DNA of 19,129 nucleotides from Candidatus Methylomirabilota bacterium (GTDB taxonomy: Bacteria > Methylomirabilota > Methylomirabilia > Rokubacteriales > CSP1-6), in contig JBKPAK010000249.1 of the NCBI GenBank assembly GCA_046726415.1, forward strand, positions 1-19,129, read 5' to 3'. How positions within the stretch are numbered: the stretch's first letter is position 1; every line of letters begins with the position of its first letter. The notes under the pieces were generated by a model. That model did no database searches. It was not told the origin of the DNA and worked only from the letters and a program-made list of their open reading frames with translations. Below, piece by piece: positions 1 through 18,657 of this stretch. Made by a program: the position numbers and the translations under genes.

Positions 1-4
1 TAGG

Positions 5-343
5 ATGGACGACATCCCTCGCATCGACGTCTGCGACGCTCACCGCCGCGTGCAGTCAGGCTACGCCCTCCTCGTGTGCGCGTACGACAATGAGGGCGAA
101 TACCGGCGGCTTCGTCCGGAAGGCGGGACCGCGCTGGTCACCTTGCAGCGGCGGGCGCCCTCGCTCTCGAGGGAGCGGGAAATCATCTTCTACTGCGCCT
201 GCCCTGCCGAAACGACATCCGCCCGGGAGGCCCGCCGGTTTCGGTCGTACGGCTTCACCGACACGAAAGCGCTGCGCGGCGGCGTGGGAGCGTGGAAGAA
301 AGCGGGCTATCTGATGGTGGGGGCGTATTGCCTCACGCGATAG
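5..343 (+). CDS. Rhodanese-like domain protein (112 aa)
   Basis: Rhodanese motifs IIFYCACPAETTSA (active-site loop region) and C-terminal ALRGGVGAWKKAG. Start lies at the window edge. Confidence 0.8.
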   Translation: MDDIPRIDVCDAHRRVQSGYALLVCAYDNEGEYRRLRPEGGTALVTLQRRAPSLSREREIIFYCACPAETTSAREARRFRSYGFTDTKALRGGVGAWKKAGYLMVGAYCLTR

Positions 344-384
344 CGTCCGCTCCTCTCGCGGGCCCGAGGACACCGACGCGCTGA

Positions 385-400
385 CGGCATAGCCGTTGCT
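385..400 (+). promoter_or_regulatory. Putative sigma54 promoter (-24/-12)
   Basis: CGGCATAGCCGTTGCT: GG(386-387)-N10-GC(398-399) with TTGC, in the gap upstream of the lipid kinase ATG at 415. Confidence 0.5.
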
Positions 401-414
401 TCGTCAGGAACACC

Positions 415-1342
415 ATGGCGATGCGGTCCGTCGAGATCGTCGTCACGCCTGGATCCGGAAACGGGCACGCACTGGCCACCGCCTATGGGTTGCTGCCGGT
501 GCTCGCCGACCGCGGCTACCGCGGCCATGTGCGCAGTTTCCAGGGCCCCCGTGATGTCCGCCAGTGGGGGCGACACTGCGGGCCCACGTTCTCTCACCTC
601 ATCGGCGTGGGGGGCGACGCCACCCTGAGCGCGGCGGCGGAAGTGGCCATTCGCGTGGGCGTGCCGTTGGTCCCGGTGCCCAGGGGGTTCGGCAACGTGT
701 TCGCCCGTACCTTCGGTCACGACGATCGGGCCGAGGCGATCGTCGAGCTGATCGAGAGCGGAGCGGTGTGCCGGGTGGACGTGGGGTGCGCGGGCCAGGA
801 GATCTTTCTGTGTCATCGGAGCTATGGGTTCCTCGACGATGTTCAGTCCGCCGTCGAGCGGAACCGCGCGCAGCCGCGGTCGCGGCTGCGCCGCCACCTC
901 GCCTACTACGCGATGGCCTGCGAGATCCTCGGCAAGATCCCGTTGTCCACGATCCGGGTCGACGTGGACGGGGAGCGAGTGGCCGAGAAACTGCGCGCTG
1001 GTCACCGTGGCCAATGTGGAGACCTACCGCGGCTTCCTCACCTTGACGCCGGCGGCATCGCCGCTCGATGGTCTCCTCGACATCTGCATCATCCCCCAGA
1101 CCACCAAGCGACGGCTCTTCGCGCGGCTCTTCGCCTTGCTCCTGAAGCTCCCTGGGCGCTGGAACGGCGTCCAGCTCCGGCGCGGTCGCGACGTGTCTGT
1201 CACCGTCGATGGCCGCGCGCGCGACGAGCTACGGGTCGCCCCGGGTGCCCTGCCACTGGTCGTGCCCGCCGCGCGCATTTCGGTGCGGCGCCCTCCGCGC
1301 GCCCTCGTCGCCGGTGGTCGCCCGTTCACGCGCGCGGCCTGA
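415..1342 (+). pseudogene. Diacylglycerol/lipid kinase family protein (YegS/DgkB-like), split by a 1-nt frameshift near 988-990
   Basis: N-half (frame of 415) has TPGSG, GVGGDATL, PRGFGNVFA, RVDVG. C-half (frame of ORF 824-1342) has VANVETYRG and ASPLDGLLDICI. Removing one A from GAGAAACTGC gives a continuous 308-aa protein. Could be a true pseudogene or a sequencing error. Confidence 0.75.
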
Positions 1343-1360
1343 CCGCCGGATGGCACGGCC

Positions 1361-2338
1361 CTACGGCATGGCCTTGTGGGCGTCGGCGACCCACCCCCGC
1401 GAGCGCATCGCGATGAGGACGATCAGTCCCACGCCGATCCACACGGCCTGACGGGCGCGACGCACGAGGCTGAAGGCCAGCCCCGCCCCGGCTCCGACTC
1501 CCAGGGCGGCGAAGGCACCGGCATTGGCTCCCTCCAGCGCGCCGATGCTGGCCGGCACGAGGAAGGTCGCGAAACGGACAGCGGCCCCGAACGCCTCGAC
1601 CACCACCGCGATGGCCAGCGAGAGGGGCACCTGCAAGGCCTGAAGGATGAGGAAAGCCTCCAGGCCTCCAAGCACCCAGCCCGCGAAATGACAGGCGGTT
1701 GAGACCAGCACTCGCGGCCACTGATACCGGTAGAAGTGCCTGAGCGAGTCGTCCAGGCGCTGGGCGTAGGATGCACCGCCGCCGACGCCGAGCGCGCTCA
1801 CCACCCGCCCGGCCTGGGCGATCACGCCCGTCAGCTGCACCAGCACGAAGCCGCCGACGGCCACGCTCTCCCCGAGCAGCAGCCAAAGCATGCTGCGCCA
1901 GAGCTGCGAGTCGAGATCGATCGCCATGCGAGCGATCACGAGGCCGAGCAGCAGGAAGAGTCCCTGGGCGATCGTGCTCGTGGTCTTGGCGATCACCAGC
2001 GAAGGGACGCTCTCCTCGTACGACACGTGATGCCGGACCAGCCAGGCCTTCACCGCTTCGCCGCCCACCGATGCCACGGCGGTCACGAGGTTCAGGGCAT
2101 CCCCCGCAACGCGGGCGCCGAGTAAGGTCAGAAACGGAGCGCGATCCCGTGCGAACGCGAAACGCCAACCCAGGGTGTCGACGGCCATGATGATGCCGTG
2201 GGGCAGGCAGAGCAGGGCGAACTGCCACCAGGCGAGTCGAGACAGCGCCTCCCCGATGGATTGCGTGCCGATCTGAAGGACGAGGTACACGAGGAACGCG
2301 ACTCCCGCGACGAACAGGGCCGTGCGGACTATGCGCAT
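1361..2338 (-). CDS. Lysylphosphatidylglycerol-synthase TM/UPF0104 flippase-like membrane protein (~325 aa)
   Basis: Multi-TM protein with motifs LGWRFAF, GDALNLVT..SVGGEAVK and VPASIGALEG. Start placed at MRIVRTALF (ATG 2338) because the upstream extension is non-hydrophobic and overlaps a promoter match. Confidence 0.8.
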   Translation of the reverse strand: MRIVRTALFVAGVAFLVYLVLQIGTQSIGEALSRLAWWQFALLCLPHGIIMAVDTLGWRFAFARDRAPFLTLLGARVAGDALNLVTAVASVGGEAVKAWLVRHHVSYEESVPSLVIAKTTSTIAQGLFLLLGLVIARMAIDLDSQLWRSMLWLLLGESVAVGGFVLVQLTGVIAQAGRVVSALGVGGGASYAQRLDDSLRHFYRYQWPRVLVSTACHFAGWVLGGLEAFLILQALQVPLSLAIAVVVEAFGAAVRFATFLVPASIGALEGANAGAFAALGVGAGAGLAFSLVRRARQAVWIGVGLIVLIAMRSRGWVADAHKAMP

Positions 2339-2350
2339 GGCTCTCGGGCC

Positions 2351-2366
2351 ACCAAGTTCCGTGCCA
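2351..2366 (-). promoter_or_regulatory. Putative sigma54 promoter (variant -12)
   Basis: Minus strand TTGGCACGGAACTTGGT: consensus -24 TTGGCACG, N10 spacing, -12 TTGG instead of TTGC. Lies 14 nt before ATG 2338. Confidence 0.5.
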
Positions 2367-2418
2367 AGCCTTGCCGGAGGCGGGGACGCCGCGTTTGTGG
2401 TACCAATAGTAAATTGTC

Positions 2419-3111
2419 GTGACGCCGCATCTTCACCGTCGCTACCCATCCGTTCTGCGCGGCGCGCCGTCGTTTGCGCGCGAGCGCGGGCTGCTCTGGG
2501 GGGCTGCGCTGGCCCTGACCGGCTATCTCCTGATGGTCTGGTGGGCCGACGCGCATACTCGGGCCCTGGATGAAGCGGTCCGCAACGCGGTGAATTTAAC
2601 CCGACATCCTCTGCTGCACCAGTTGATGGCGGATGTGTCGCGCCTCGGCGCAGCCGAGGGCCTCATCGCACTGATCGCCGTGGGCTCGGCGAGCCTGTGG
2701 CGACACGACCGCTGCTGGGCCCTGGTTCTGCCCGCGCTCATGGCGGGCACAGGGGCGCTTCAGTTCCTCGCCAAGTGGTCTGTCGACCGCCCGCGCCCGA
2801 ATCTCGAGCCCTGGGGATTCCCGAGCGGCCACGTGCTCAGCCTGGTCGTGTTCTTTGGACTTCTGACCTACCTGGGGGAGCGGTCGGGAGGAAGCCGGCC
2901 CCGCCGGTGCCTGACCGCGGTCATGTGCGCGATGCCGGTGGTGGTCGTGGCGTACAGTCGGCTGTACCTCGACAAGCACTGGCTCAGCGATCTGGCTGGT
3001 GGTTTCACGGTTGGCCTGGCGTATCTGCTCCTCGTCATCCTCGTCGTCGAAACGACCCGCGCTCGGCGTTCGGCGCGGAAGCGACCGATGCCCGCGCATG
3101 ATGTGGTTTGA
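2419..3111 (+). CDS. PAP2-family phosphatase (membrane lipid-phosphate phosphatase)
   Basis: All three PAP2 motifs present: KWSVDRPRP, FPSGH, SRLYLDKHWLSD, plus TM segments. Start codon uncertain. Confidence 0.88.
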   Translation: MTPHLHRRYPSVLRGAPSFARERGLLWGAALALTGYLLMVWWADAHTRALDEAVRNAVNLTRHPLLHQLMADVSRLGAAEGLIALIAVGSASLWRHDRCWALVLPALMAGTGALQFLAKWSVDRPRPNLEPWGFPSGHVLSLVVFFGLLTYLGERSGGSRPRRCLTAVMCAMPVVVVAYSRLYLDKHWLSDLAGGFTVGLAYLLLVILVVETTRARRSARKRPMPAHDVV

Positions 3112-3181
3112 AGAAGGTCCTTCCGCTCGATGAGCCCGCCGTCTTTGCCCGTGGCCGCTCCTTGAATGACAGCGCATTGCG

Positions 3182-3895
3182 ATGGCGACAAAGGTTCGGC
3201 GTCCCGACCTGCCCGATCTGAGCCGCTACGGCCGCCTGGCCGAGTACCAGCGCAAACGCCGCTTCGACGTGACGCCCGAACCGGCCGGCAAGCCAGTGGG
3301 CAAAAGGCCCGCTCGAACCTCCCGTGCCGCCCTTCAGTTCGTCGTGCAGAAGCACCGCGCCAGCCACCTTCACTACGACTTTCGGCTGGAGCACGAGGGG
3401 GTGATGCTGTCGTGGTCGGTGCCGAAAGGGCCGTCGCTCGATCCCACCGTCAAGCGCCTCGCCATGCAGACTGAACCTCATCCGATGGACTACAACGAGT
3501 TCGAGGGCGTGATCCCGGAGGGCGAGTACGGCGGAGGCACGGTGATGATCTGGGATCGCGGCACCTGGACGCCCGAGACGGACGACGTCAACCGGGCCCT
3601 CGTCAAAGGCGATCTGAAGTTCACCTTGCGCGGTCGCAAGCTTACTGGCTCGTGGGTCCTCGTGCGGATTCGCGGCGAGCGCCAGTGGCTGCTCATCAAG
3701 CACCGTGACGCCGCCGTCTCCAGCGAAGACCTCACAATCACCCGCCCACTTTCGGTCGTGTCGCGCCGAACGATGGCGGGTATCGCTCGCGCCGCCGGCG
3801 CGAGCCCTCGCCAGCTCGCCCTCGCCGCCGCCGCCGATCCGCCCCGTGCCGCGGCGGCCACGGCAACGCGCGTTCCTCGGAGTTTGGGATCCTGA
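3182..3895 (+). CDS. ligD: Stand-alone LigD 3'-phosphoesterase (PE) domain protein
   Basis: YQRKRRFDVTPEP, FVVQKHRASHLHYDFRLE, SWSVPKGPS, KRLAMQTEPHP, GEYGGGTVMIWDRGTW and WLLIK match the LigD N-terminal PE domain. No ligase or polymerase domain fused. Confidence 0.92.
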   Translation: MATKVRRPDLPDLSRYGRLAEYQRKRRFDVTPEPAGKPVGKRPARTSRAALQFVVQKHRASHLHYDFRLEHEGVMLSWSVPKGPSLDPTVKRLAMQTEPHPMDYNEFEGVIPEGEYGGGTVMIWDRGTWTPETDDVNRALVKGDLKFTLRGRKLTGSWVLVRIRGERQWLLIKHRDAAVSSEDLTITRPLSVVSRRTMAGIARAAGASPRQLALAAAADPPRAAAATATRVPRSLGS

Positions 3896-5484
3896 CGCCG
3901 ACCGCCGTTCCGGTCGCCGTCGCGCGCGCCCTGCGTGAGATCGGCCTCCTGCTCGAGGCCCAAGGCGCCAATCGCTACCGGGCGCGCGCGTACGAGCGCG
4001 CGGCGCGGGCGATCGAGGCGTTGGGTGACAGCCTGGACGCGCTGATCGCCGAGGGTCGGCTGACCCGCGTGCCCGGTATCGGGTCCACCCTGGCCGCCAC
4101 CATCGAGGAGCTGGCGCGCACAGGTCGGAGCACGTCGCTCGAGCGCCTTCGCCAGCGCCTGCCGCCCAGTGCCCTTGGGGCGAAGACCGAACGAAAGATC
4201 CAGTCCGAGATCGAGCGCCGGGCCGGCCCCCGGCGCGAGGCTCTCCTGCACGAGGCCACGGCCGAGGCGGACGAGATCCTCCACGACGTTCGCGCGCACC
4301 CGGCGGTCGAGCGGGCCGATGTGGCGGGAGCGCTCCGGCGCCAGACCGAGACGGTCAGCCGTATCGACCTGGTCGCGGCCGGGAGCGATCCACAGGCCAT
4401 CCTCGACCATCTCGCACGCCTTTCCCTGGCTGCGTCGGTGTTGGAGCGCGCGGAGGATCGCGTCGCCCTTCGCCTGACCGGCGGCTTGCCGCTGCATGCC
4501 ATCGTCGTGCCGCCGGTGTCCTACGTGGCCGCGCTCCATCGCCTCACGGGTTCGGAGGCACACCTCGCCAAGCTAGGAGCGCTCGGGCGGGAGCGCGGCA
4601 TCACCATGGACACGTCGGGCTGGCGCCGACGCGGTCGCCTGCTGGCCGTCCGCAGCGAAGCGGATATCTACCGGCATCTCGGGCTGCCGCACATCCCTCC
4701 CGAAATGCGGGAAGACGAGGGCGAGATCGAGGCCGCCGTCGCGGGCGCGCTGCCGCGCGATCCCGTCGAGCTGCACGACATTCGAGGCGCGGTGCACTGC
4801 CACACGACGTACTCGGATGGCGCTCACTCGATCGAGGAGATGGCGCGGGGCGCCGACGCCCTCGGCATGCAGTATCTGACCATTACCGATCACTCACCGA
4901 CCGCGTCGTACGCCGGGGGCCTCACGGTGGACCGCCTACGCCGCCAGTGGGAGGAGATCGCGCGAGTCCAGGAGAAGGTCCAGGTGCGCCTGCTCCGCGG
5001 AACCGAATCCGACATCCTGGCGGACGGCTCCCTCGACTACCCGGACGACGTACTCGAGCAGCTCGACATCGTGATCGCCAGCGTCCATCACCGGCATCGC
5101 CTGGACGCCATCCAGATGACCCGCCGGATCGTGACGGCGATGCGCCACCCGCGCTTCAAGGTCTGGGGCCACGCGCTCGGCCGCTACGTGCTGCAACGAC
5201 CTCCCTTCGCCTGCCACATGGAGGAAGTCCTGGATGCGATCGGCCAGGCCAAAGCCGCGGTCGAGGTCAACGGCGACCCCCACCGGCTCGACATGGAGCC
5301 GCGCTGGATCCGCGAGGCGCGCAAGCGCGGCATCCGATTCGTCATCTCCACCGACGCTCACTCGGTGGCCGCCCTGGGCAATCTGCGCTGGGGCGTGGCC
5401 ATGGCGCGCCGGGGCTGGCTCTCGCGGGTGGACGTCCTGAACACCCTGGGCGTGGACGAGTTCCGGGCGGCGGTGCGGCCATGA
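3892..5484 (+). CDS. polX: PolX-PHP (X-family polymerase/3'-5' exonuclease), non-canonical, probably polymerase-inactive (~530 aa)
   Basis: N-terminal motif LREIGLLLEAQGANRYRARAYERAA (3931-4005) is in frame upstream of the TTG at 4021. HhH VPGIG, GALRRQTETV, TGS and intact PHP motifs HCHTTYSDG, TDHS, GTESDI, SVH, GH, EVNG, STDAH. Start inferred as CTG 3892. Confidence 0.9.
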   Translation: MTPTAVPVAVARALREIGLLLEAQGANRYRARAYERAARAIEALGDSLDALIAEGRLTRVPGIGSTLAATIEELARTGRSTSLERLRQRLPPSALGAKTERKIQSEIERRAGPRREALLHEATAEADEILHDVRAHPAVERADVAGALRRQTETVSRIDLVAAGSDPQAILDHLARLSLAASVLERAEDRVALRLTGGLPLHAIVVPPVSYVAALHRLTGSEAHLAKLGALGRERGITMDTSGWRRRGRLLAVRSEADIYRHLGLPHIPPEMREDEGEIEAAVAGALPRDPVELHDIRGAVHCHTTYSDGAHSIEEMARGADALGMQYLTITDHSPTASYAGGLTVDRLRRQWEEIARVQEKVQVRLLRGTESDILADGSLDYPDDVLEQLDIVIASVHHRHRLDAIQMTRRIVTAMRHPRFKVWGHALGRYVLQRPPFACHMEEVLDAIGQAKAAVEVNGDPHRLDMEPRWIREARKRGIRFVISTDAHSVAALGNLRWGVAMARRGWLSRVDVLNTLGVDEFRAAVRP

Positions 5485-6155
5485 CGCGTCTTTTCATTCT
5501 CTCGCCCGCCTCCTGCCGGGGCGAGCGCGCGCGTCTGCTGTTCAACGAGCGCGCCGCGTTCGACGCCGCTCGTCGGCTTCGCTCGCCAGCGGGTATCTCT
5601 CTCGGGGAGGTCTTTGCGTTCATGAGCGGCCTCTACTTCCGAGGCAAGCTGTCGTATGCGCGCGCCTTCGCCCGGCCTCCCGCTGGCGGGCCGGGTGTCG
5701 TGGTCATCACGCCGTGCGACGGGTTCAGGACGCCTGAGGAGCCCGTGGATATCGCGCGACTGAAGCGCTACGCGGTGGTGCCCATCGAGCGGAGCGAGGC
5801 GCGCTACCGGCGGCCGCTCCTACGCGATGCCCGTGCCCTCGCCAGCCTGCTCGATGCCGGTTCCGAGATCGTCCTGCTGGGCAGCGTGGCCAGCGGGAAG
5901 TACGTCGATCTGCTGGGCGAGGTCTTCGGACCTCGCCTCCGCTTTCCCGTCGAGTTCGTGGGGCGGGGCGACATGAGCCGTGGCGGGCTCCTGCTGCGCT
6001 GCGTAGCTGAGGGGCGGGAGCTGGAGTACATCCCCCTCGTGGGTGCCGTCCGCCGCGGGCCTCGCCCACCTCGGCTCGTGCCACGTCCGGGTATCTACCG
6101 GCAGGCGATGGAGGCCGACGGCGCCCCCGTGCGCCTCCCGGCGGGGGACGTGTGA
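5481..6155 (+). CDS. Hypothetical protein (224 aa), possibly distant YaaA/DUF328-like
   Basis: ATGA overlap with the polX stop and GTGA overlap with the next gene. Globular-looking sequence with ILSPA, SGLYFRGK, VLLGSVASGKY and GRGDMSRGGLLLRC. Confidence 0.75.
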   Translation: MTRLFILSPASCRGERARLLFNERAAFDAARRLRSPAGISLGEVFAFMSGLYFRGKLSYARAFARPPAGGPGVVVITPCDGFRTPEEPVDIARLKRYAVVPIERSEARYRRPLLRDARALASLLDAGSEIVLLGSVASGKYVDLLGEVFGPRLRFPVEFVGRGDMSRGGLLLRCVAEGRELEYIPLVGAVRRGPRPPRLVPRPGIYRQAMEADGAPVRLPAGDV

Positions 6156-7183
6156 GCGGAGGAGAGCGCCGGCGAGCCGGGACCGCGGCGACCCGCGAGT
6201 ATCATCCCGCGCAGCGCACGGTGTCGCGCATTCCCCCGGGGATACGTGGAGCCGGCGTGGACATTCCGCGCGACGCGGACACTGCGGATGTGCAGGTGGG
6301 GACGCGCGCCGTGCATCTCACCAATCTCGGCAAACCGTTCTGGCCGGCCCTCGGCCTAGCCAAGCGCGATCTGCTCCAGTACTACGCGGACGTCTCGGGG
6401 GTACTGCTGCCGCATCTGCGCGACCGGGCCATGGTCATGAAGCGCTACCCCAACGGGGCCAGCGGTGAGTTCTTCTTCATGAAGCGCGCCCCCTCGCCGC
6501 GGCCGGAATGGATCGAGCTCTGCTCGATCGAGCATCAGTCGACCAACATCATCGACTTCCCCATGATCCAGGACCTCGCCTCGCTGCTCTGGGTGGTGAA
6601 TCTCGGCTGTATCGACCTGAACCAGTGGTACGCGCGCTGCGACGACGTGGACCGGCCCGACTACGTCCACTTCGACCTCGATCCGGTGAAGGGAAAGCCG
6701 GAGCCGTCGTTCGCGCGCGTCCGGGAAGCGGCGCTGCTCGTGCGGGACGGGCTCGAGGCGCTGGGCATGCCCGCCTACGCCAAGACCACCGGCTCGCGCG
6801 GCATCCATGTGTACGTTCCCATCGTGCGCGGCCCCAACCAGAAGGACGTCTGGGAGTTCGCCAAGCGCTTCTCCATCCGCCTGGCCGGTCTCCATCCCAC
6901 CCTCCTCACCGCCGAGTATCGGGTCACCCGGCGCCCGGCCGGGCACATCCTGGTGGACTACAACCAGAATGCCTGGGGGCGCACCCTGGCGTCCGTCTAC
7001 TCCGTGCGCCCCCATCCGCACGCGGCCGTGTCGACGCCCGTCACCTGGAAGGAGCTCGAGAGCGACATCGCCATCGAAGACTTCCATCTTCGCAATGTGC
7101 CAGCGCGGGTTCGCCGCGTGGCGGATCTGTGGAAGCCACTCCTCCAGAGCAAGGGACGGGTCCGCTTGGAGCGCTTCCTGTGA
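6152..7183 (+). CDS. ligD: Stand-alone LigD polymerase / Prim-Pol (AEP family)
   Basis: LTNLGKPFWP, KRDLLQYY, KRYPNG, FFMKRAP, HFDLDP (DxD), KTTGSRGIH, VDYNQN, YSVRP, VSTPVTW. Confidence 0.92.
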   Translation: MSGGERRRAGTAATREYHPAQRTVSRIPPGIRGAGVDIPRDADTADVQVGTRAVHLTNLGKPFWPALGLAKRDLLQYYADVSGVLLPHLRDRAMVMKRYPNGASGEFFFMKRAPSPRPEWIELCSIEHQSTNIIDFPMIQDLASLLWVVNLGCIDLNQWYARCDDVDRPDYVHFDLDPVKGKPEPSFARVREAALLVRDGLEALGMPAYAKTTGSRGIHVYVPIVRGPNQKDVWEFAKRFSIRLAGLHPTLLTAEYRVTRRPAGHILVDYNQNAWGRTLASVYSVRPHPHAAVSTPVTWKELESDIAIEDFHLRNVPARVRRVADLWKPLLQSKGRVRLERFL

Positions 7184-7296
7184 GCCTGCCCATCGTGGCG
7201 CCGAGGCGCTGCGCGCCCAAGGGCCCTGAGGTTGAGCCCGCGCCCGCCAGCGCACTGGCCTGCTGGCACCGCGGATGCTGGACTCAGCGCGCATGA
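7180..7296 (+). other. 38-codon micro-ORF, possible remnant start of an ATP-dependent ligase gene
   Basis: GGAG (7168-7171) then GTG overlapping the polymerase stop (GTGA). Begins MSLPIVAP and ends with a TGA overlapping ATG 7293. Confidence 0.3.
7264..7279 (+). promoter_or_regulatory. Putative sigma54 promoter of tkt
   Basis: TGGCACCGCGGATGCT: GG(7265-7266)-N10-GC(7277-7278), 15 nt before ATG 7293. Confidence 0.55.
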
Positions 7297-9164
7297 GATC
7301 CAGCCGAACCGCGGACGCATTCATCAAATCCCTGGATGATGTCGCCACCCGGTTGCGCATCGAGTCGATCCGAGCCACGACAGCGGCCGGCAGCGGCCAT
7401 CCGTCCAGCTCGGCATCGGCGGCAGACCTGGTGGCCGCCACCTTCTACGAGATGTGCTTCGATCCCGCCAAGCCTCGCGCGATCACCAGCGATCGATTTG
7501 TCCTCAGTAAGGGTCACGCGGCACCTGTGCTGTACGCGGCCTGGGCCGAGATCGGAGCCCTCAAGCGCGAGCAACTCACGACCCTGCGCAAGCTCGACAG
7601 CGATCTCGAGGGGCATCCCACGCCGCGCCTGCCGTTCGTCGACGTGGCGACCGGTTCACTCGGACAGGGCCTAGGGGTGGGCGTCGGACTGGCGTTGGGC
7701 GCTCGCCTGGCCGGCAGCCCCGCGCGGGCCTTCGTGCTGCTGGGCGACGGCGAGACCGCCGAGGGCTCGGTGTGGGAAGCCGCCCAGATGGCGGCTCACG
7801 AGCGACTCGACAACCTCGTAGCGATCGTCGATGTCAACGGGCTCGGCCAATCCGGATCCACCATGCTCGACCACGACGTGAGTGCGTACCAGCGGCGGTG
7901 GGCCGCGTTCGGATGGCGGGCGGAAGTCGTGGATGGCCACGCCATGCGGGACATCGTGCGCGCGCTGCGCCGCACGCGTGCTCGGCGGGGCGCGCCGGTC
8001 GCGCTGGTGGCCCGGACGGTGAAGGGCAAAGGCATCGAGGAGATCGAAGGGCGCGAGGGTTGGCACGGCAGACCCCTTCCCGCGGATATGGCCGAGCGCG
8101 CCATTGCGGCACTCGAGAAGAAGCTCCATCACCTGCCGCCCCCGCCGATCCGCTTGCCGCAGCCCTCGGCGGCGCCGACTCCGCCCCCGCCGACCGGTAC
8201 GGCGCCGACCGGTACGGCGCCGGGCACGTCGAGCGGCGACGTCGCGACTCGCGAAGCCTATGGCACCGCGCTGGCTCAGTTGGGCGCGCGCGACGCGCGG
8301 GTGGTCGCCCTCGACGGCGACGTGAAGAACTCGACGTACGCCGAGCGCTTTCGCGACGCCCACCCCGACCGGTATGTCGAAGGCTACATCGCCGAGCAGA
8401 ACATGGTGAGCGTGGCGGCCGGCCTCGCGGCGCAGGGGCGGATCCCGTTCGTGTCGTCTTTTGCGTGCTTTTTGACGCGCGCGGCCGATCAGATCAGGAT
8501 GGTGGGAATCTCGGGCGGCAACGTCAAGTTCTGCGGCTCTCACGCCGGTGTCAGCATCGGCGAAGACGGACCTTCGCAGATGGGGCTCGAGGACCTGGCC
8601 CTCTTCCGGGCGGTCCCCGGCGCTCTCGTGCTCTACCCGGCCGACGGGGTGGCGACCGATGCCTGCGTTCGGCTGGCGGCCCACCATCACGGCGTCGCCT
8701 ACATCCGGACCACTCGCATGAAGACCCCGAGTATCTACGGACCGGAGGAGGCATTCGATCCTGGTGGCCTCAAGGTGCTGCGGAGCCGTGACGGCGATCG
8801 GCTGACCGTGGTGGCGGCCGGCATCACCCTGCACGAGGCGCTGGCGGCCCACGACGAGCTGGCTCGCGGCGGCGTCTCCGTGCGCGTGATCGATCTCTAC
8901 GGAGTGAAGCCCGTCGATGCGGACGGCTTGGTGGCCGCGGCGCGGGCCACCGGTAACACGCTCCTCACCGTGGAAGATCACTATGCGGAGGGAGGCCTCG
9001 GCGACGCGGTCCTCGGAGCCGTGGCCACCAGCGGCATCGCCACTCACCGCCTGGCAGTGAGCGAAGTGCCGCGCAGCGGAGCCCCCCGTGAATTGCTCGA
9101 GCGCTATGGCATCGGGCGGAGGGCCATCGCCGCGGTCGTGCGCAAGATCCTCGGCCACGACTGA
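7293..9164 (+). CDS. tkt: Transketolase, single-chain, human-TKT-like subtype
   Basis: GSGHP, DRFVLSKGHAAP, LEGHP, TGSLGQG, TPP motif GDGETAEGSVWEA..N, IAEQNMV, GEDGPSQM, VEDHY. Start may be 7275 or 7293. Confidence 0.93.
   Translation: MRSSRTADAFIKSLDDVATRLRIESIRATTAAGSGHPSSSASAADLVAATFYEMCFDPAKPRAITSDRFVLSKGHAAPVLYAAWAEIGALKREQLTTLRKLDSDLEGHPTPRLPFVDVATGSLGQGLGVGVGLALGARLAGSPARAFVLLGDGETAEGSVWEAAQMAAHERLDNLVAIVDVNGLGQSGSTMLDHDVSAYQRRWAAFGWRAEVVDGHAMRDIVRALRRTRARRGAPVALVARTVKGKGIEEIEGREGWHGRPLPADMAERAIAALEKKLHHLPPPPIRLPQPSAAPTPPPPTGTAPTGTAPGTSSGDVATREAYGTALAQLGARDARVVALDGDVKNSTYAERFRDAHPDRYVEGYIAEQNMVSVAAGLAAQGRIPFVSSFACFLTRAADQIRMVGISGGNVKFCGSHAGVSIGEDGPSQMGLEDLALFRAVPGALVLYPADGVATDACVRLAAHHHGVAYIRTTRMKTPSIYGPEEAFDPGGLKVLRSRDGDRLTVVAAGITLHEALAAHDELARGGVSVRVIDLYGVKPVDADGLVAAARATGNTLLTVEDHYAEGGLGDAVLGAVATSGIATHRLAVSEVPRSGAPRELLERYGIGRRAIAAVVRKILGHD
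8189..8222 (+). repeat. 15-bp tandem duplication in the tkt interdomain linker (PTGTA x2)
   Basis: GCCGACCGGTACGGC twice (8189-8203, 8204-8218) plus GCCG, in frame. Confidence 0.85.
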
Positions 9165-9274
9165 GCGAACACTCAATCACGTCTTGGGGCATCGAGCCAG
9201 TGGAGCTCAGCGCGTCTCGCTGGCATGCTGCACGCAACTGGCCTCAACGAGTTCGGCGGATGGTTCTCCTCTCC

Positions 9275-9296
9275 CCCCTATCCCCGAAGGTAGGGG
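9275..9296. terminator. Hairpin between convergent tkt and receiver genes, possible terminator
   Basis: CCCCTATC-cccgaa-GGTAGGGG, 8-bp stem with one G-U pair. No U-tract. Confidence 0.25.
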
Positions 9297-9324
9297 CTCC
9301 CTGGGCGGGCCACTCGCCGGGCTC

Positions 9325-9753
9325 TCACCGCTGGGCGCGACCGCTGAGGAGCGCGCGGAGCACCTCGGGGTCGACCGGCTTGAGGAGGTGGGCATCGAAT
9401 CCGGCCTCGCCCGCCCGCTCCTGATCCTCGAGGCGGCCGTAGCCGGTGACGGCCACGAGGAAGACCGGCCTCGAGCCTGGCAGGGCGCGAATCCTGCGGG
9501 CCAACTCGTAGCCATCGAGTCCGGGGAGTCCCACGTCGATGAGCGCCACGTCAGGTCTGGCGTCGACGCATCGCGCGAGCCCGGTCTCCCCGTCGCTGGC
9601 TTCGGCGGCTTCGTGACCCCAGAGCCGGAGAAGGGCCATCAGCATTTCCCGGCTATCGTCGCTGTCTTCCACCACCAACACCCGGAGCGGCAGCCTCGGC
9701 GGGGCGGACGCCAAGGGCGTGGCCAGGAGGATACCCGCGTCAGCGAATAGCAC
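9325..9753 (-). CDS. Stand-alone response regulator receiver protein
   Basis: RVLVVEDSDD, PDVALIDVGLPGLDGYE (phospho-Asp), VTGYG, HLLKP. SD GAGGAG upstream of the GTG. Confidence 0.88.
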   Translation of the reverse strand: MLFADAGILLATPLASAPPRLPLRVLVVEDSDDSREMLMALLRLWGHEAAEASDGETGLARCVDARPDVALIDVGLPGLDGYELARRIRALPGSRPVFLVAVTGYGRLEDQERAGEAGFDAHLLKPVDPEVLRALLSGRAQR

Positions 9754-9811
9754 CTATTATTCTCCTCTGTGTTCGTGTTCCCAAGGGGGGCAGGCCGGCC
9801 CACCAGGGCCC

Positions 9812-9997
9812 TTACAGGTATTGCCCCATGATGGCGGCGCCCTCGGCCGCGCGGGGCTCGCCCCTCTGCCCCGTGGCCAGGGGCTGGATGTGGTGGGCCG
9901 GCGCCTCGGGGTCCGACGCGGACCTGAACCTTTCGGTATTAGCGCTCGGTATGCTCGCCGCCAGCTCGGTATTCGCGCTCGGTACGCTCACCGCCAT
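9812..9997 (-). CDS. Small hypothetical protein (61 aa) with a duplicated 11-aa N-terminal unit
   Basis: SD AAGGAG about 7 nt before the ATG, with a sigma54 match immediately upstream. Confidence 0.5.
   Translation of the reverse strand: MAVSVPSANTELAASIPSANTERFRSASDPEAPAHHIQPLATGQRGEPRAAEGAAIMGQYL
9933..9996. repeat. Imperfect 33-bp-period direct repeat (2 copies)
   Basis: TCGGTATTAGCGCTCGGTATGCTCGCCGCCA (9933-9963) vs TCGGTATTCGCGCTCGGTACGCTCACCGCCA (9966-9996), 3 mismatches in 31 nt. Confidence 0.8.
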
Positions 9998-10033
9998 CGC
10001 TCGACTCCTTCCGTTCGCCTACCGCCATGTGAG

Positions 10034-10049
10034 TGCATGGGAAGTGCCA
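10034..10049 (-). promoter_or_regulatory. Putative sigma54 promoter for the 61-aa ORF and receiver gene
   Basis: Minus strand TGGCACTTCCCATGCA (GG-N10-GC). Confidence 0.6.
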
Positions 10050-10117
10050 TAGCGCGCTCCCTGGCATGGTCGGTGAAGCTGGCGGGAAGTCATGCGCGAA
10101 TGGTCAGAGGGCGTGGC

Positions 10118-10133
10118 TGGCGCATCGGTTGCA
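10118..10133 (+). promoter_or_regulatory. Putative sigma54 promoter with no obvious sense gene downstream
   Basis: TGGCGCATCGGTTGCA (GG-N10-GC with TTGCA). Confidence 0.45.
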
Positions 10134-10200
10134 CCGGGACACGAGGACGCGGTACCGTGACTTGACGCGATCCTCGCGAAGACGGGCCGTCTCCGACCGC

Positions 10201-11541
10201 CTACGGGAGTCGGAGGGGATACGTCACTTGCAGGCCAACGGTGACGCGATTCTGGTCGACGTCGTTGGTGATCTGGGTTCCCGAGCTGCGCTGGAAGAAG
10301 AAGTTGTAGGCGGCCACGGCGGTCAGCCAGTCGGCGATCCGGTAGGTGGCGGTCAAGCCGATGTTGAAGGCGTTCGTGTCGATGCGCGTGTTTTCGTTGG
10401 CCGTCACGTAGGCGCCGGTGAGGCCCACGGCGAAGTTGCGGGTCAGACCCGAGACCTCCACACCGGCCCCCACGGCGTTCGTCTCCGCCGTACCCGGCAA
10501 TCCGCCGATCACCGCGTTGCGGCGGTCGAAGCTCAGCCACATCGCTCCCCACCGAAAGATCTGAGTCGCGAGGGCGCTGGCCGCCAGGCTGAAGCCGACG
10601 TTGCCCTCGGTGGCGTACTGCGGACCGAGCCGCAGCGATGCGTGGAGTGACTCGGTGATTTGATAGCGCGCGCCGACGAGGCCGGCGAACGTCGCGGTGC
10701 TTTCCCCCACCACATCGGAGTAGGCGAACTCGAAGTCCGCCAGTCCGGTCAGGCGAGGCAAGAGTCGGCGCTCCAGCGAAGCCCGGAAGCCGTAGAGGTC
10801 AAAATCGTTGAGTGGCTCGCCTTCCGGCGGCGCCTCGATGAGGCGCGTGCGCTGCCACGACCCGGCGACCAGCAGGCGGGTGATTGGGTCGATGTCCCAT
10901 TCGAGGCCCGGGGCCACCAGGTTCGTCCAGCTGTCGACGCGTCCCGTCGAGATGCTGGGGAGCGCCGTGGCGCTCGTATTGTTGTCGCGGGAGTAGCGTT
11001 CCGAGAGGCGCACGCGGAGCCGGGGATCGATCCGGTAGAGGCCGTCCAGGGTAGCAACCTGACGGGCCAGCGCGTCGTTCAGCTCCGTCTGGTCGGCGTA
11101 GATCTCGGACGTGAACGCGTAGCCCAGGACGAGGTTGTACCGCGGATCGCGGATTCCGAAGATCACTCCCGGCGAGAAGCGGGTGATGAAGTCGGACCGC
11201 TTGAGGTTGTTGTCGGAGAAAACGTTGTCGTTGTACTCCTCGTCGACCAGGAAAGTCGGGATGAGCACGTAGCGCCCGGCCTGCAGCTCGCTCACTAGAC
11301 GATCGGGCTGGACGCCTCGGATGGGCGGGCTGGGAGGTGCCGGGATCGGCATCGGATACGGCCCGGGAGTGGGCAGGGTCGGCGGCAGGACCGGGGCCTC
11401 GCGCTCTGGCCCGAGTGGCGGTAGCCCGGGCGGCGTCTGCTGCAAGGTCATCTGCCCGGCAGCATCCGTGGCGAGCCAGGCCAGCCACACTAAGGCTAGC
11501 AGGGATGGCCGCCAGGCTCGCGGTCTCACGCGCCATCTCAT
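10201..11541 (-). CDS. Outer-membrane beta-barrel protein, polysaccharide-export associated (BBP2/EpsX-like)
   Basis: Signal peptide, Pro-rich linker, then EEYNDNVF..SDFITRFSPG (typical start of this barrel family), amphipathic beta strands, and C-terminal NRVTVGLQVTYP. Confidence 0.78.
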   Translation of the reverse strand: MRWRVRPRAWRPSLLALVWLAWLATDAAGQMTLQQTPPGLPPLGPEREAPVLPPTLPTPGPYPMPIPAPPSPPIRGVQPDRLVSELQAGRYVLIPTFLVDEEYNDNVFSDNNLKRSDFITRFSPGVIFGIRDPRYNLVLGYAFTSEIYADQTELNDALARQVATLDGLYRIDPRLRVRLSERYSRDNNTSATALPSISTGRVDSWTNLVAPGLEWDIDPITRLLVAGSWQRTRLIEAPPEGEPLNDFDLYGFRASLERRLLPRLTGLADFEFAYSDVVGESTATFAGLVGARYQITESLHASLRLGPQYATEGNVGFSLAASALATQIFRWGAMWLSFDRRNAVIGGLPGTAETNAVGAGVEVSGLTRNFAVGLTGAYVTANENTRIDTNAFNIGLTATYRIADWLTAVAAYNFFFQRSSGTQITNDVDQNRVTVGLQVTYPLRLP

Positions 11542-11712
11542 ACCACACGGTCGCCGAGCGCGTCACCTTCAATCGGCGTCTGGTCACGGCGATGGTCGTC
11601 GAACCTGCGCGGCCCAAGTCGCCCGCAAACGGTGGCAGAAGCTACAGTTCGGCGACGTTGCCCGGCGAAATGCAGTCCGACGGCACTGCTCCTCGGAACT
11701 CTTCGCACTCGC

Positions 11713-11728
11713 TGGCACAGCGCTTGAA
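11713..11728 (+). promoter_or_regulatory. Putative sigma54 promoter of rsbRST (variant -12)
   Basis: TGGCACAGCGCTTGAA: consensus -24, N10 spacing, -12 TTGA. Followed by an AT-rich stretch. Confidence 0.5.
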
Positions 11729-11849
11729 ATGTTAAAGCCTTGGCACATTCTAAATACAGGGAGGCGGATCGACTGGATGACGACGCAGCGGGCCACCCGT
11801 CGGGTGGAGCCTCCGGTCGCCGTTGGGACCGGACAAGACGGAGGAGGTT

Positions 11850-12728
11850 GTGAGTAACGGTCGATCCCGCGTGGCCACTCCCGAGTCCTCCGCTGACGCA
11901 GCCCGGGAGCTCGCGGAACTGGCCGCTGACCTCCGTCGCCAACGGGCCCCCGTCCTGGACGAATGGGTCCGGCGCATCATCGAGGCCCACTTCCTCACGA
12001 CCGTGAGCCGCGACCAGCTCGGTCCGGCCGTGTCGCCACTCTACGACGGCTACATCGAAGCCCTGGAAACCGGGACGACGGAGCCGCTCGAGGCGAGCGC
12101 GCGGAGCCTACTCCAGCGCGGGCGACTGCGTTCGGAAACCCATGAAGTCGTCGGCCTCATTCTCCTGCTCCGCGACGTGCTCGCACAGAGCCTGCGAGAG
12201 AGCTCGGCCGCGCCCAGTCGCGGGGCCGACATCCTAGAGCGGGCGGCCTCCCGGCTGGCCGTTGCTGTGGCCGTCGGCCTCGTCGAGGAGCGAGAGCGGG
12301 CCATTCGCGACGAGCAAGAGGCGATCCGGGAGCTCTCGACCCCCCTGCTCCAGATTCGCGATCGCCTTTTCATCCTGCCGATGATCGGAGTGATCGATCA
12401 GCGGCGGGCCCGGCAGCTCACCGAGCAAGTCTTGCGCGGTGTCCGGTCGAGTCGAGCAAAAGTGGTCCTGATCGACATGACCGGGGTTCCCACCCTGGAT
12501 GCCAGTGCGGCAACCCATCTCGTTCAGACGGTGGACGCGGCCCGCCTGCTCGGCACGATCGTCATCATGAGCGGGATCTCGGCCGAGTTGGCCCACATGC
12601 TCGTGAGCCTTGGCGTGGATCTTGGACGCGTCCTGACCGTCGGCGATCTCCAGGCCGGCCTCGAGGAGGCTGAGAAATTGCTCGGCTACCGACTCATCAC
12701 TCGGAGGGCGGCGGCGCGGCCCGGCTGA
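11850..12728 (+). CDS. rsbR: RsbR-like stressosome protein (helical N-terminal sensor + STAS, 292 aa)
   Basis: IRELSTP..LPMIGVID..RA..VVLIDMTGVP..LLG..SGIS STAS signature. GGAGGAGG SD before GTG 11850. Confidence 0.88.
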   Translation: MSNGRSRVATPESSADAARELAELAADLRRQRAPVLDEWVRRIIEAHFLTTVSRDQLGPAVSPLYDGYIEALETGTTEPLEASARSLLQRGRLRSETHEVVGLILLLRDVLAQSLRESSAAPSRGADILERAASRLAVAVAVGLVEERERAIRDEQEAIRELSTPLLQIRDRLFILPMIGVIDQRRARQLTEQVLRGVRSSRAKVVLIDMTGVPTLDASAATHLVQTVDAARLLGTIVIMSGISAELAHMLVSLGVDLGRVLTVGDLQAGLEEAEKLLGYRLITRRAAARPG

Positions 12729-12747
12729 CGCTGGCGGCGCCGCGACC

Positions 12748-13113
12748 ATGCCCGTCCCCATCCTCAAGCAGGGGCCGTATCTGATCGCCTCGATCCAGTC
12801 TGCACTGACCGACCTGGACCTGTTGCAGCTTCGCGACGCCCTGGTGGAGCAGGTCGGTCGCTATCGCTCGCGCGGCGTGCTCATGGACGTGACGGCGCTG
12901 GATGTCATGGACTCCTTCGCCAGCCGCACGGTGCGCGAAATCGCCCAGATGGTCAAGCTCCGAGGGGTGGACACCGTGATCGTGGGCATCGATCCGGACG
13001 TAGCGCTGGCCATGGTCCGCCTCGGACTCGATCTCGAAGGCGTCACCACGACGCTGGATCTGGAGGAAGGTCTGGCGTTTCTCGATGCCCGAACGAAAGA
13101 GGTCAGCCAATGA
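12748..13113 (+). CDS. rsbS: RsbS STAS antagonist
   Basis: MPVPILK, LIASIQ, DVMDSF (conserved phospho-Ser), VGIDPDVA, LDLEEGL. Confidence 0.92.
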   Translation: MPVPILKQGPYLIASIQSALTDLDLLQLRDALVEQVGRYRSRGVLMDVTALDVMDSFASRTVREIAQMVKLRGVDTVIVGIDPDVALAMVRLGLDLEGVTTTLDLEEGLAFLDARTKEVSQ

Positions 13114-13553
13114 GCGCGCAGCCTGTTCTCAAACCACCCACCGTCCCTCCTGCGGTCGAGGAGACGTGTGTTCCGATCGACGCGGATATCCACATTGCCG
13201 CCGCCCGTCAGAAGGGTCGCCTCCTCGCCACCCAGCTTGGCTTCTCGTCGGGGGAGGCCACCTTCATCGCCACCGCCATTTCGGAGCTGGCCCGCAACAT
13301 TCTGATCTATGCGACCCGGGGTGAGATCCGCCTCACGCCCGTCCAGCACGACGCCCGGCGGGGGATCATCGTCACCGCCCGCGACGAGGGTCATGGCATC
13401 GAAGACATCGGCCGGGCCATGGAGGATGGCTACTCGACCTCGGGTCGCCTCGGCGTGGGATTGCCCGGCGTGAAGCGGCTCATGGACGAGTTCGACATCG
13501 TCTCCGAGGTCGGCCGCGGCACCACGGTCATTGTCACGAAGTGGAGACGCTGA
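13110..13553 (+). CDS. rsbT: RsbT Ser/Thr switch kinase (GHKL)
   Basis: ATAISELARNI, DEGHGI, DGYSTSGRLGVGLPG, RLMDEF, GRGTTV. ATGA overlap with rsbS. Confidence 0.93.
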   Translation: MSAQPVLKPPTVPPAVEETCVPIDADIHIAAARQKGRLLATQLGFSSGEATFIATAISELARNILIYATRGEIRLTPVQHDARRGIIVTARDEGHGIEDIGRAMEDGYSTSGRLGVGLPGVKRLMDEFDIVSEVGRGTTVIVTKWRR

Positions 13554-13630
13554 TCGTTCATGGATGTCACGAAGTGGAGACGCTGATCGTTCATGGATGT
13601 CACGAAGTGGAGACGCTGATCGTTCATCGA
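13532..13630. repeat. 3 x 33-bp tandem repeat spanning the rsbT stop codon
   Basis: TGTCACGAAGTGGAGACGCTGATCGTTCATGGA at 13532, 13565 and 13598 (third copy has one mismatch). No spacers. Confidence 0.95.
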
Positions 13631-13742
13631 TGACCGCCGGCGCGCCGCTCGGCGCTCGTTTCGTGTGTCCCACGTCTCGTGTGACTACGTCGGCCACCCT
13701 GCTGCCATCCCATCTGACTGCATCGGGCGACGGCAAGCTCGT

Positions 13743-13758
13743 TGGCGTAGTGCTTGCT
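13743..13758 (+). promoter_or_regulatory. Putative sigma54 promoter of the polysaccharide operon
   Basis: TGGCGTAGTGCTTGCT: GG(13744-13745)-N10-GC(13756-13757). Confidence 0.6.
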
Positions 13759-13820
13759 ACACGAGCGGCAGGGAATTCGCGGCGGTGCGCAGCAGTCGGC
13801 GCGCCGCGTCGAACATGAGG

Positions 13821-13891
13821 CACGCGAATTCCACCGAAGGACCGCGTGAGGGTCTGGCCAAAGGGAGACGCCGGACCCAAAGGGGCGAAGC
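13821..13891 (+). promoter_or_regulatory. Structured leader: tandem hairpins plus ops-like motif (JUMPstart-like)
   Basis: CACGCG..CGCGTG stem, then GGGTCTGGC-11 nt-GCCGGACCC 9-bp stem, then AAAGGGGCGAAGC, directly before a NusG paralog. Confidence 0.45.
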
Positions 13892-13892
13892 T

Positions 13893-14465: not shown

Positions 14466-14497
14466 GCGCCGCCATCCGTCACGCGCAGGAGGAAGGC

Positions 14498-15097: not shown

Positions 15098-15151
15098 CCG
15101 TGGGGCGGAACCGCGCGTCGTCCACTGGTCGTTCAGCCGGAGGAGCGTCGA

Positions 15152-16672: not shown

Positions 16673-16680
16673 GACCGGCC

Positions 16681-18614: not shown

Positions 18615-18626
18615 GCGCGCGTTCGC

Positions 18627-18642
18627 TGGACGCGCGCTTGCA
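18627..18642 (+). promoter_or_regulatory. Putative internal sigma54 promoter overlapping a 9-bp inverted repeat
   Basis: TGGACGCGCGCTTGCA (GG-N10-GC), 17 nt before ATG 18658. Inverted repeat AGCGCGCGT..ACGCGCGCT spans 18614-18638. Confidence 0.45.
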
Positions 18643-18657
18643 ATCATCCTCAATAGC

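Follow-up and report, generated by a model that had tools for sequence, protein, structure and literature searches.

Results

X224 is part of a four-gene cassette

The window analysed here, by which we mean the whole stretch of 19,129 nucleotides, is taken from contig JBKPAK010000249.1 (positions 1 to 19,129, forward strand) of a Candidatus Methylomirabilota bacterium (GenBank assembly GCA_046726415.1). Our subject is an open reading frame (ORF) on this strand, 5481..6155, which runs from an ATG at 5481 to a TGA at 6155 and encodes a protein of 224 residues that we call X224; its homologues are referred to as the X224 family. Profile comparison and the predicted fold place X224 in an unnamed family of the YaaA/DUF6884 superfamily, and we conclude that X224 probably serves bacterial DNA repair as a helper that has not been described before.

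The ATG of X224 overlaps the stop codon of a PolX-family gene (ATGA, 5481-5484), and its TGA overlaps the GTG start of a gene for a primase-polymerase (PrimPol; GTGA, 6152-6155). The original prediction, made from the DNA letters, had described the ORF as coupled on both sides to these two genes, and the two 4-nucleotide (nt) overlaps confirm this.

The first gene of the cassette (3182..3895, forward strand) encodes a stand-alone LigD 3'-phosphoesterase (PE), recognized by PF13298 (LigD_N, E 3.8e-44) and TIGR02777 (E 6.8e-64). The stop codon of PE, a TGA at 3893-3895, overlaps the codon CTG at 3892 in the frame of the PolX-family gene (3892..5484, forward strand), whose product was assigned an 8-kDa HhH domain, a thumb and a PHP domain from Pfam matches and homology. 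When PolX was read from the start at 4021, Pfam found DNA_pol_B_thumb (E 3.9e-14) and PHP (E 9.9e-11), and the NCBIfam model PRK08609 gave 338.8 bits, under its cut-off of 426 bits. When the frame was read from 3892, HHH_8 was also found, at residues 10-79 (E 2.8e-15). Homology with the PolX of a relative reaches back to 3913, upstream of the first canonical start, TTG 4021, and the frame contains no ATG, GTG or TTG between the upstream stop and 4021 (window 3889-4021). The sequence thus suggests a non-canonical, translationally coupled start at CTG 3892 that overlaps the PE stop (cTGA). If PolX does start there, all four genes of the cassette are linked through 4-nt overlaps. The polymerase-beta palm and fingers domains were not found by Pfam in PolX (3892-5484), where about 134 residues separate the 8-kDa domain from the thumb; judging from its domain content, PolX may be a polymerase-degenerate protein that has kept its PHP (exonuclease/phosphatase) domain.

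The last gene of the cassette, coupled to X224 through the GTGA overlap, encodes a stand-alone LigD-type PrimPol (6152..7183, forward strand; PF21686, E 6.8e-81). Its best solved relatives were 5dmu (E 1.3e-52), Prim-PolC (6sa0, E 1.6e-44) and LigD-POL of M. tuberculosis (2iru, E 5.3e-40). On the other side of the cassette, a 193-residue ORF without a Pfam match (2596-3177, reverse strand) is divergent from the PE gene. The annotated starts of these two lie just 4 nt apart, so at least one of them is probably misplaced.

X224 represents a large family of hypothetical proteins

X224 itself had no Pfam match, no NCBIfam match at E<=0.1 and no sequence relative in the PDB. Nonetheless, at least 8000 proteins in a set of 5.8 billion matched X224 at E<=0.001, all of them named 'hypothetical protein' or left blank in the source, and none with a precomputed Pfam domain. 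An exhaustive search of representatives at 50% identity returned 1558 clusters at E<=0.001, 1143 at 1e-10 and 213 at 1e-30. We considered whether X224 might be a spurious ORF of high-GC DNA and rejected this, because thousands of homologues are conserved; the X224 gene is real and conserved. The isoelectric point (pI) of X224 is 10.6, and the median among 60 family members is 10.1.

In species-representative genomes, 590 of 600 pattern matches to X224 were confirmed, and the best-scoring 80 of these at least 590 confirmed genome stretches were used for the analysis of loci described below. These 80 loci come from Acidobacteriota, Methylomirabilota/Rokubacteria, Verrucomicrobiota, Gemmatimonadota, Planctomycetota, Actinomycetota, Chloroflexota and Dormibacterota metagenome-assembled genomes, and their X224 homologues share 53-68% identity with X224. 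Within the phylum of the window, the family was present in 99 of 251 genomes (42 of the 104 of high quality). It was confined to two taxonomic families (81/158 and 17/21 genomes), with 0/72 in the eleven others, and was patchy inside genera and nearly always present in one copy, as it is in the genome of the window. Four family copies in this phylum (G108:C15, G226:C18, G247:C124 and G177:C29) are decaying, having in-frame stops or being split in two, which is consistent, as far as their sequences go, with an accessory, dispensable gene. The tallies of X224 and Ku by phylum and by carrier genome include five genomes flagged as unpublished (G216, G076, G261, G034 and G217; one of the 80 loci, L033, is in G261), and no claim rests solely on them.

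A tblastn search for the family in plasmid and phage collections gave no match. The ESM Atlas search returned only unnamed clusters of the X224 family itself, and the limited collection of literature that we searched contained no description of the family or of its link with repair genes.

Five motifs are conserved across the family

Conservation was scored over 60 homologues and over 20 closer ones; unless noted, the residues given below refer to the 60 sequences. The original prediction had listed five motifs, and all five are present in X224 (all on the forward strand) and invariant or nearly so in both sets. Motif 1, FILSPASCRGERA (5493..5531, residues 5-17), passes from strand 1 through a Gly-containing loop into a helix. 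S8 and A10 are invariant and P9, G14 and R16 are conserved in at least 90% of sequences; the motif aligns with LISPAK of YaaA and, in a low-confidence part of the alignment, with the LISCxxxK region of DUF6884. Motif 2, SGLYFRGKLSYA (5625..5660, residues 49-60), has invariant S49, L51, Y52, K56 and Y59 and aligns with DLYxSxLFRxxLxYA of DUF6884. Motif 3, VVVITPCDGF (5697..5726, residues 73-82), consists of a strand and a hairpin (strands 73-77 and 81-83 of the model described below), with G81 and L82 conserved in at least 90%, and aligns with ILSAKYGL of DUF6884 and MLSGLYGV of YaaA. Motif 4, VLLGSVASGKY (5871..5903, residues 131-141), comprises a strand, a Gly loop and a helix; G134 is invariant, L132, L133, S135, A137, K140 and Y141 reach at least 90%, and the counterparts are LAGxKY in DUF6884 and NLASDEY in YaaA. 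Motif 5, FVGRGDMSRGGLLLR (5955..5999, residues 159-173), is a loop with the N-terminus of a helix, in which G163, R167 and L172 are invariant; in the 20 closer homologues the whole motif is invariant. It aligns with ARGLMSRF of YaaA and with RGGLaLR of an actinobacterial YaaA-like group.

The order of these motifs had been predicted to be that of YaaA. Using the E. coli YaaA sequence from NC_000913, we found the motifs to be collinear with those of the real protein in a low-stringency profile alignment (P 0.04, not significant alone), which pairs FLLSPA with LISPAK, VITPxxGL with MLSGLYGV, LLGSIAxxKY with NLASDEYF and GRGDMSRG with ARGLMSRF. The predicted SGLYF motif is also present, but its counterpart is DLYxSxLF of DUF6884 and not LSGLYG of YaaA; the match between SGLY of X224 and SGLY of YaaA was at chance level (a 7-column single-sequence match, probability 0.4%). 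The X224, DUF6884 and YaaA families agree at several positions: strand 1 is followed by a Ser, the hairpin behind strand 2 carries Ser/Thr-x-x-x-Gly, strand 4 is followed by Ala-x-x-x-Tyr, and the last core helix opens with a Gly.

The predicted structure of X224 resembles YaaA and DUF6884

The AlphaFold2 model of X224, computed from the 60-sequence alignment, had a mean pLDDT of 95.2 and a pTM of 0.91. It describes an alpha/beta domain with strands at residues 3-7, 73-77, 81-83, 129-133, 153-156 and 183-185. The best solved structural match of the model was YaaA (PDB 5caj), and the top two solved matches were identical for the X224 and DUF6884 models, namely YaaA followed by AF0587, an archaeal protein of unknown function (PDB 2q07) that was matched at residues 258-388. 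The order of secondary structure elements was also the same in the X224 and DUF6884 models. In a Foldseek search of predicted viral structures (BFVD), the matches of X224 at ranks 1, 2, 4 and 6 were DUF6884 or YaaA proteins of phages. Rank 1 was a DUF6884 protein of Caulobacter phage Kronos (E 6.5e-3, probability 0.99) and rank 2 a phage protein named YaaA (E 8.8e-3, probability 1.00, TMt 0.65, root-mean-square deviation 3.9 over 171 columns). The model matched no unrelated characterized family, its best solved match being YaaA and its best viral matches DUF6884 and YaaA, and through this convergence of weak matches X224 is predicted to have the YaaA fold (5caj).

Other matches were rejected. 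Ku, von Willebrand factor A (vWA) and Rossmann structures were matched by Foldseek in the PDB with E-values of 0.13-0.8 (Ku 0.17-0.65), which is at chance level, and a stretch of isocitrate dehydrogenase in the PDB profile search (E 0.0047) was judged spurious. In one DUF6884 protein (L119, in G284), about 430 further residues are fused to the domain on its C-terminal side. This fusion and the match to AF0587 suggest that the fold is also found as a domain within larger proteins.

X224 is related to DUF6884 by profile comparison

When the X224 profile was compared with that of DUF6884 by hhalign, the probability was 75.3% with a P of 2.5e-5 and a score of 38.8. A second profile-profile run gave a probability of 73.3% and a P of 3e-5 over 82 columns, and the alignments spanned 82-123 columns altogether. 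As a benchmark, alignments of DUF6884 with YaaA-type profiles under the same conditions had P values of 3.3e-5 and 1.5e-5. As a control, column-shuffled X224 profiles reached a best P of 0.048 (score 18.5) against DUF6884 in 30 attempted shuffles, at least one of which was not parsed, and the reversed profile gave a P of 0.47. When 60 relatives were scanned against Pfam at E<=10, the family matched by the largest number of them was DUF6884, yet that number was 2 of the 60, with a best E of 0.024. The YaaA profiles were built from genome searches; the homologues returned by a protein search were all enterobacterial, at 77-100% identity. The profile comparison indicates that X224 is homologous to DUF6884 at the level of the superfamily.

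DUF6884 (PF21818), which includes YfjM of B. subtilis and many phage proteins, is like X224 in its order of secondary structure, its profile match and its top two solved matches, and the two have in common the Ser after strand 1, the hairpin after strand 2 (ITPxxG in X224, LSAKYG in DUF6884), an LY...YA helix and the Ala-x-x-x-Tyr after strand 4. X224 exceeds DUF6884 in length by about 80 residues; its model shows additional helices (15-49 and 91-98) and extends further at the C-terminus (178-213), and the invariant motifs SGLYFRGK and GRGDMSRGG are peculiar to its family. Phages commonly carry DUF6884, whereas searches of the phage and plasmid collections gave no X224 homologue, and the gene neighbourhood of X224 differs. 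At one locus (L081, in G011), the DUF6884 gene seems to be truncated at its 5' end beside an ORF of 497 residues, possibly because of interruption by a mobile element.

With YaaA (also DUF328 or UPF0246; PF03883), X224 shares a basic character and, in the low-stringency alignment, has collinear counterparts of the SPA, [ST]xxxG hairpin, AxxxY and RGxMSR elements. X224 lacks most of the YaaA insert of about 95 residues between strand 1 and the LSGLYG hairpin, and in E. coli the yaaA gene is flanked by yaaX and the transporter gene yaaJ and is not part of a repair operon. PF03883 YaaA was present in none of 30 genomes that carry X224 homologues (G251-G280, carriers of L004...L074). The distributions of X224 and YaaA may thus be complementary, which would fit a functional replacement. 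In the phylum of the window, PF03883 YaaA was found in just 2 of 251 genomes. A second YaaA-like group in Actinomycetota (L107-L114), which scores about 70 bits on PF03883, starts with LLAPSExKAxGG and ends with RGGLaLRL. By its resemblance to the X224 family at both termini, this group may be intermediate between YaaA and the X224 family.

X224 homologues adjoin repair genes in several phyla

Neighbouring genes were searched by tblastn with PE, PolX and PrimPol of the window and with a ligase, an EEP nuclease, Ku and a fused kinase from other loci. A gene for PrimPol, an ATP-dependent ligase, PolX, PE, an ExoIII-like nuclease or Ku was found within 3 kb of the X224 homologue in 58 of the 80 loci, in six arrangements. 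PrimPol was directly downstream on the same strand in 33/80 loci. An ATP-dependent ligase was directly downstream in 13/80, most of them from Verrucomicrobiota, and no more than 2.5 kb away in a further 15; an ExoIII-like EEP gene was directly downstream in 2/80. Directly upstream, PolX was found in 14/80 loci and PE in 2/80. The arrangements across phyla include X-PrimPol, X-ligase, PolX-X-EEP-ligase and PE-X, where X is the X224 homologue. Pfam was run on 118 of the 211 neighbour ORFs and found DNA_ligase_A_M in 8 and Exo_endo_phos in 2, with ordinary lineage-specific neighbours elsewhere; the remaining 93 were covered by tblastn only (PrimPol, ligase, PolX, PE, EEP, Ku and polynucleotide kinase (PNK) queries).

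We also analyzed 30 loci from the phylum of the window, with flanks of 1.5 kb. Such a neighbour was present in 26 of them, and 19 had the order PolX-X-PrimPol. In loci of this phylum a ligase often follows PrimPol (PolX-X-PrimPol-ligase; L120-L136). In the window (7183-7275), where Pfam identified the gene after PrimPol as a transketolase, there is no ligase in the cassette, which is the common cassette minus its ligase. The genome of the window has seven matches to ATP-dependent ligases and two Ku genes, all on other contigs. The association with repair genes is strong in both sets of loci, and the X224 family recurrently adjoins PrimPol, ATP-dependent ligase, PE or PolX in unrelated lineages. 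A complex prediction for PrimPol (29-row alignment) with X224 (60 rows) scored 0.07 against a mark of 0.32 and is no evidence either way.

Ku was present somewhere in the genome in 28 of 30 carriers from other phyla and in 93 of the 99 carriers from the phylum of the window; the six others are G115, G123, G126, G129, G190 and G198, five of which are less than 85% complete. Because Ku is present in nearly all carriers, the idea that X224 is a substitute for Ku was rejected.

Some X224 relatives are fused to a PNKP-like kinase

Fourteen long relatives (271-552 residues, among 150 listed representatives) were scanned for additional domains. An AAA_33 P-loop kinase is present in four of the 14, at the N-terminus of two and at the C-terminus of the other two; a GNAT domain was found in one relative and DUF7790 in one. 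Among solved structures, the fused kinases matched best with the kinase domain of mammalian PNKP (E 2.5e-11 and 2.5e-12) and next with entries for the kinase domain of Clostridium thermocellum Pnkp. Some members of the X224 family are therefore fused, in either order, to a PNKP-like polynucleotide 5'-kinase.

Other genes in the window

Away from the cassette, exopolysaccharide-type genes occupy 15152-18614 and encode a Wzz/GNVR chain-length determinant, an AAA_22 ATPase and a ParA/MinD-like (AAA_31) protein. Close to this set are a 566-residue ORF without a Pfam match (12861-14561, reverse strand) and a gene for an outer-membrane beta-barrel (10201-11541, reverse strand).

Discussion

To our knowledge, YaaA has no known molecular function despite its solved structure and clear stress and DNA-damage phenotypes, DUF6884 is curated only as a domain of unknown function, and the accessory factors of bacterial LigD/LigC repair are poorly known. 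The E. coli protein, a monomer of novel fold whose apex bears a basic depression, is purified together with double-stranded DNA, and cells that lack it have higher mutation rates when under peroxide stress (PMC4834066). In Caulobacter, yaaA mutants show sensitivity to mitomycin C, ultraviolet light and H2O2 (PMC10055390), and B. subtilis YfjM, a DUF6884 protein, was enriched on DNA baits with an abasic site or an RNA base (PMC10220248, Table 1). The Pfam curators describe DUF6884 as distantly related to YaaA and propose for it a DNA-binding cleft and an active site with a flipped nucleotide, with conserved CxxxK and LSAxxG (PMC11701544).

The X224 family is co-transcribed with or adjacent to stand-alone LigD-type modules, PolX and sometimes an ExoIII-like nuclease across several phyla. 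We think it fairly probable that the family is a third branch of the YaaA/DUF6884 superfamily that serves as a lesion or gap sensor of a Ku-independent cassette resembling LigC/Prim-PolC. X224 would bind damaged DNA, such as a nick, a short gap, an abasic site or a broken end. The predicted binding site is a basic depression formed by the strand-loop-helix motifs SPAxxxGxR, LLGSxAxxKY and GRGDMSRGG together with the SGLYFRGK helix, and this depression would bind a phosphate or the lesion. X224 would then present or hand the substrate to the neighbouring enzymes of end healing, gap filling and sealing (PrimPol, PolX, PE, ligase or kinase), and would thus act as a sensor in Ku-independent strand-break or excision repair, in carriers that would also hold Ku-dependent non-homologous end joining (NHEJ) elsewhere in the genome.

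A number of observations weigh against this reading. A direct comparison of the X224 and YaaA profiles was not significant (P 0.02-0.04, probability 1-2%). PF03883 (gathering score 29.6 bits) did not match X224 at E<=0.01 and matched none of 60 relatives and nothing in the whole genome at E<=10, and PF21818 (gathering score 30 bits) did not match X224 and matched nothing in the genome at E<=10. Foldseek found nothing in the PDB at E<=0.001 with the X224 model, YaaA being absent among the matches listed; the BFVD matches had E-values of 6.5e-3 to 0.13, and the named entries of the ESM Atlas gave no usable match. X224 is without the Lys of SPAK in YaaA. It is also without the literal CxxxK and LSAxxG of DUF6884, reading SPAxxxG and ITPxxG instead, with only Ser/Thr and Gly in common. 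At the level of genes, 22 of the 80 loci had no repair neighbour at all, and Ku lay within 3 kb in one locus and within 4.3 kb in one more. Because the 80 loci are mutually related, their counts lack independence, and the cassette may be passed on as a unit by transfer. DNA binding by the family would follow by analogy with its relatives, the high pI may be a mere effect of Arg-rich, high-GC proteomes, and the very high conservation of X224 across phyla (53-68% identity) would be no less expected of an enzyme than of a passive binder.

As for the superfamily, the kinship of X224 with YaaA is significant because of the link through DUF6884 (P 2.5e-5). X224 has a Pro opposite the invariant hallmark Cys of DUF6884, and this change, with the absent Lys of SPAK, argues for a position within the superfamily and outside both Pfam families. 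Since X224 fails both Pfam models, we regard its family as a third, previously unnamed branch of this 'melon-slice' alpha/beta superfamily. The original prediction of a possible YaaA/DUF328-fold protein thus holds for the superfamily, by the fold and the match to DUF6884, and fails for membership, in that Pfam assigns X224 to neither DUF328 nor DUF6884. As for the neighbourhood, the loci are the best-scoring ones and interrelated, and we therefore treat the counts as descriptive and place weight on the variety of arrangements across phyla.

An accessory role in NHEJ-like repair had also been predicted. LigD-module genes do lie beside X224 homologues, but adjacency to Ku was not found beyond the one locus in 80 (within 3 kb). 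The cassettes contain the same enzyme modules as Ku-LigD NHEJ (POL, PE and LIG), and X224 carriers nearly always have Ku. Unlike Ku-LigD NHEJ, the modules are separate genes and there is no fused LigD, and X224 resembles Ku only in Foldseek matches at chance level. In mycobacteria, stand-alone LigC and Prim-PolC form an excision-repair complex (PMC5663958). The X224 loci are like this system in having operons of stand-alone PrimPol and stand-alone ATP-dependent ligase and, at 3 loci, an ExoIII-like EEP gene within the cassette, and PrimPol of the window scored slightly higher against Prim-PolC (155.7 bits) than against LigD-POL of M. tuberculosis (140.8 bits). They are unlike it in that they add PolX and PE, in that the cassette of the window is without a ligase, and in that the abstract of the mycobacterial report mentions no YaaA-like subunit (PMC5663958). 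Given the lack of an adjacent Ku and the encoding of the modules by separate genes, we favour a gap or excision-repair pathway like that of LigC/Prim-PolC, which is at least as likely for X224 as a role in classical NHEJ.

The same conserved residues could belong to an enzyme that processes lesions or ends ahead of PrimPol and ligase, for instance an apurinic/apyrimidinic (AP) or deoxyribose phosphate (dRP) lyase, a base-flipping glycosylase-like activity or a remover of blocked termini, with catalysis by invariant Ser, Lys, Tyr and Asp in the conserved loops; we hold this to be possible, if on the unlikely side. The cross-phylum identity of X224 is similar to that of the adjacent PrimPol (63-74%), the invariant polar residues S8, S49, Y52, K56, Y59 and R167 (and D164 in the closer set) occupy strand-loop-helix positions like those of an active site, and members of the family are fused to or lie beside end-healing enzymes (PNKP-like kinase, PE, EEP). 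The active site with a flipped nucleotide proposed by the Pfam curators for DUF6884 (PMC11701544) would also fit. Its motifs, CxxxK and LSAxxG, are however not literally kept in X224, no catalytic activity is known in any member of the superfamily, and sequence, profile and structure searches of the PDB found no similarity of X224 to a known lyase, glycosylase or nuclease. Were X224 a catalytic base- or end-flipping enzyme, which we would not put forward as the probable case, it might take an unassigned step of strand-break or excision repair, the candidate being recognition and cleaning of an abasic, dRP or blocked terminus before fill-in by PrimPol and sealing by a LigC/LigD-type ligase.

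A role on RNA or RNA-containing ends, in an RNA-repair or tRNA-related system, appears very improbable. PNK-type kinases, ATP-dependent ligases and 3'-phosphoesterases are also known from RNA repair, AF0587, of unknown function, is the second-best structural match of both X224 and DUF6884, one DUF6884 protein (L119) is fused to a long extra domain, and YfjM was enriched on the RNA-base bait as well (PMC10220248, Table 1). Yet the commonest partners of X224 are DNA polymerases (LigD PrimPol, PolX) and LigD-type ligase, the kinase fused to some members most resembles the DNA-end kinase of PNKP, and no tRNA or RNA-ligase (RtcB, Rnl) neighbours were found among the 118 neighbour ORFs scanned. Slightly less probable still is that the repair neighbourhood is conserved synteny only and that X224 has an unrelated role, such as iron/peroxide homeostasis or regulation. 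The loci without repair neighbours could be read in this way, as could the first link of the E. coli yaaA phenotype, which was with unincorporated iron (PMC4834066); and since YaaA is absent from all 30 carrier genomes examined, X224 could simply replace it. Mere synteny does not sit well with an association that is kept in differing arrangements across different phyla, with independent polynucleotide kinase fusions in both orders, or with start and stop codons of X224 that overlap the neighbouring genes.

If X224 is catalytic, knowing its reaction would at the same time show what the YaaA/DUF6884 superfamily as a whole does at the molecular level, which has long been sought. For the favoured reading, X224 as a lesion or gap sensor, the X224 family gives the clearest genomic context found here for this superfamily, with translational coupling to genes for LigD-type polymerase, ligase, phosphoesterase and PolX and with fusions to a DNA-end kinase like that of PNKP. 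Its members occur widely among the dominant phyla of soil (Acidobacteriota, Verrucomicrobiota, Methylomirabilota and Gemmatimonadota), and X224 is a candidate new component of bacterial LigD/LigC repair. This context turns a vague 'DNA-binding stress protein' into a testable hypothesis, that of a lesion/gap sensor or processor in strand-break repair.

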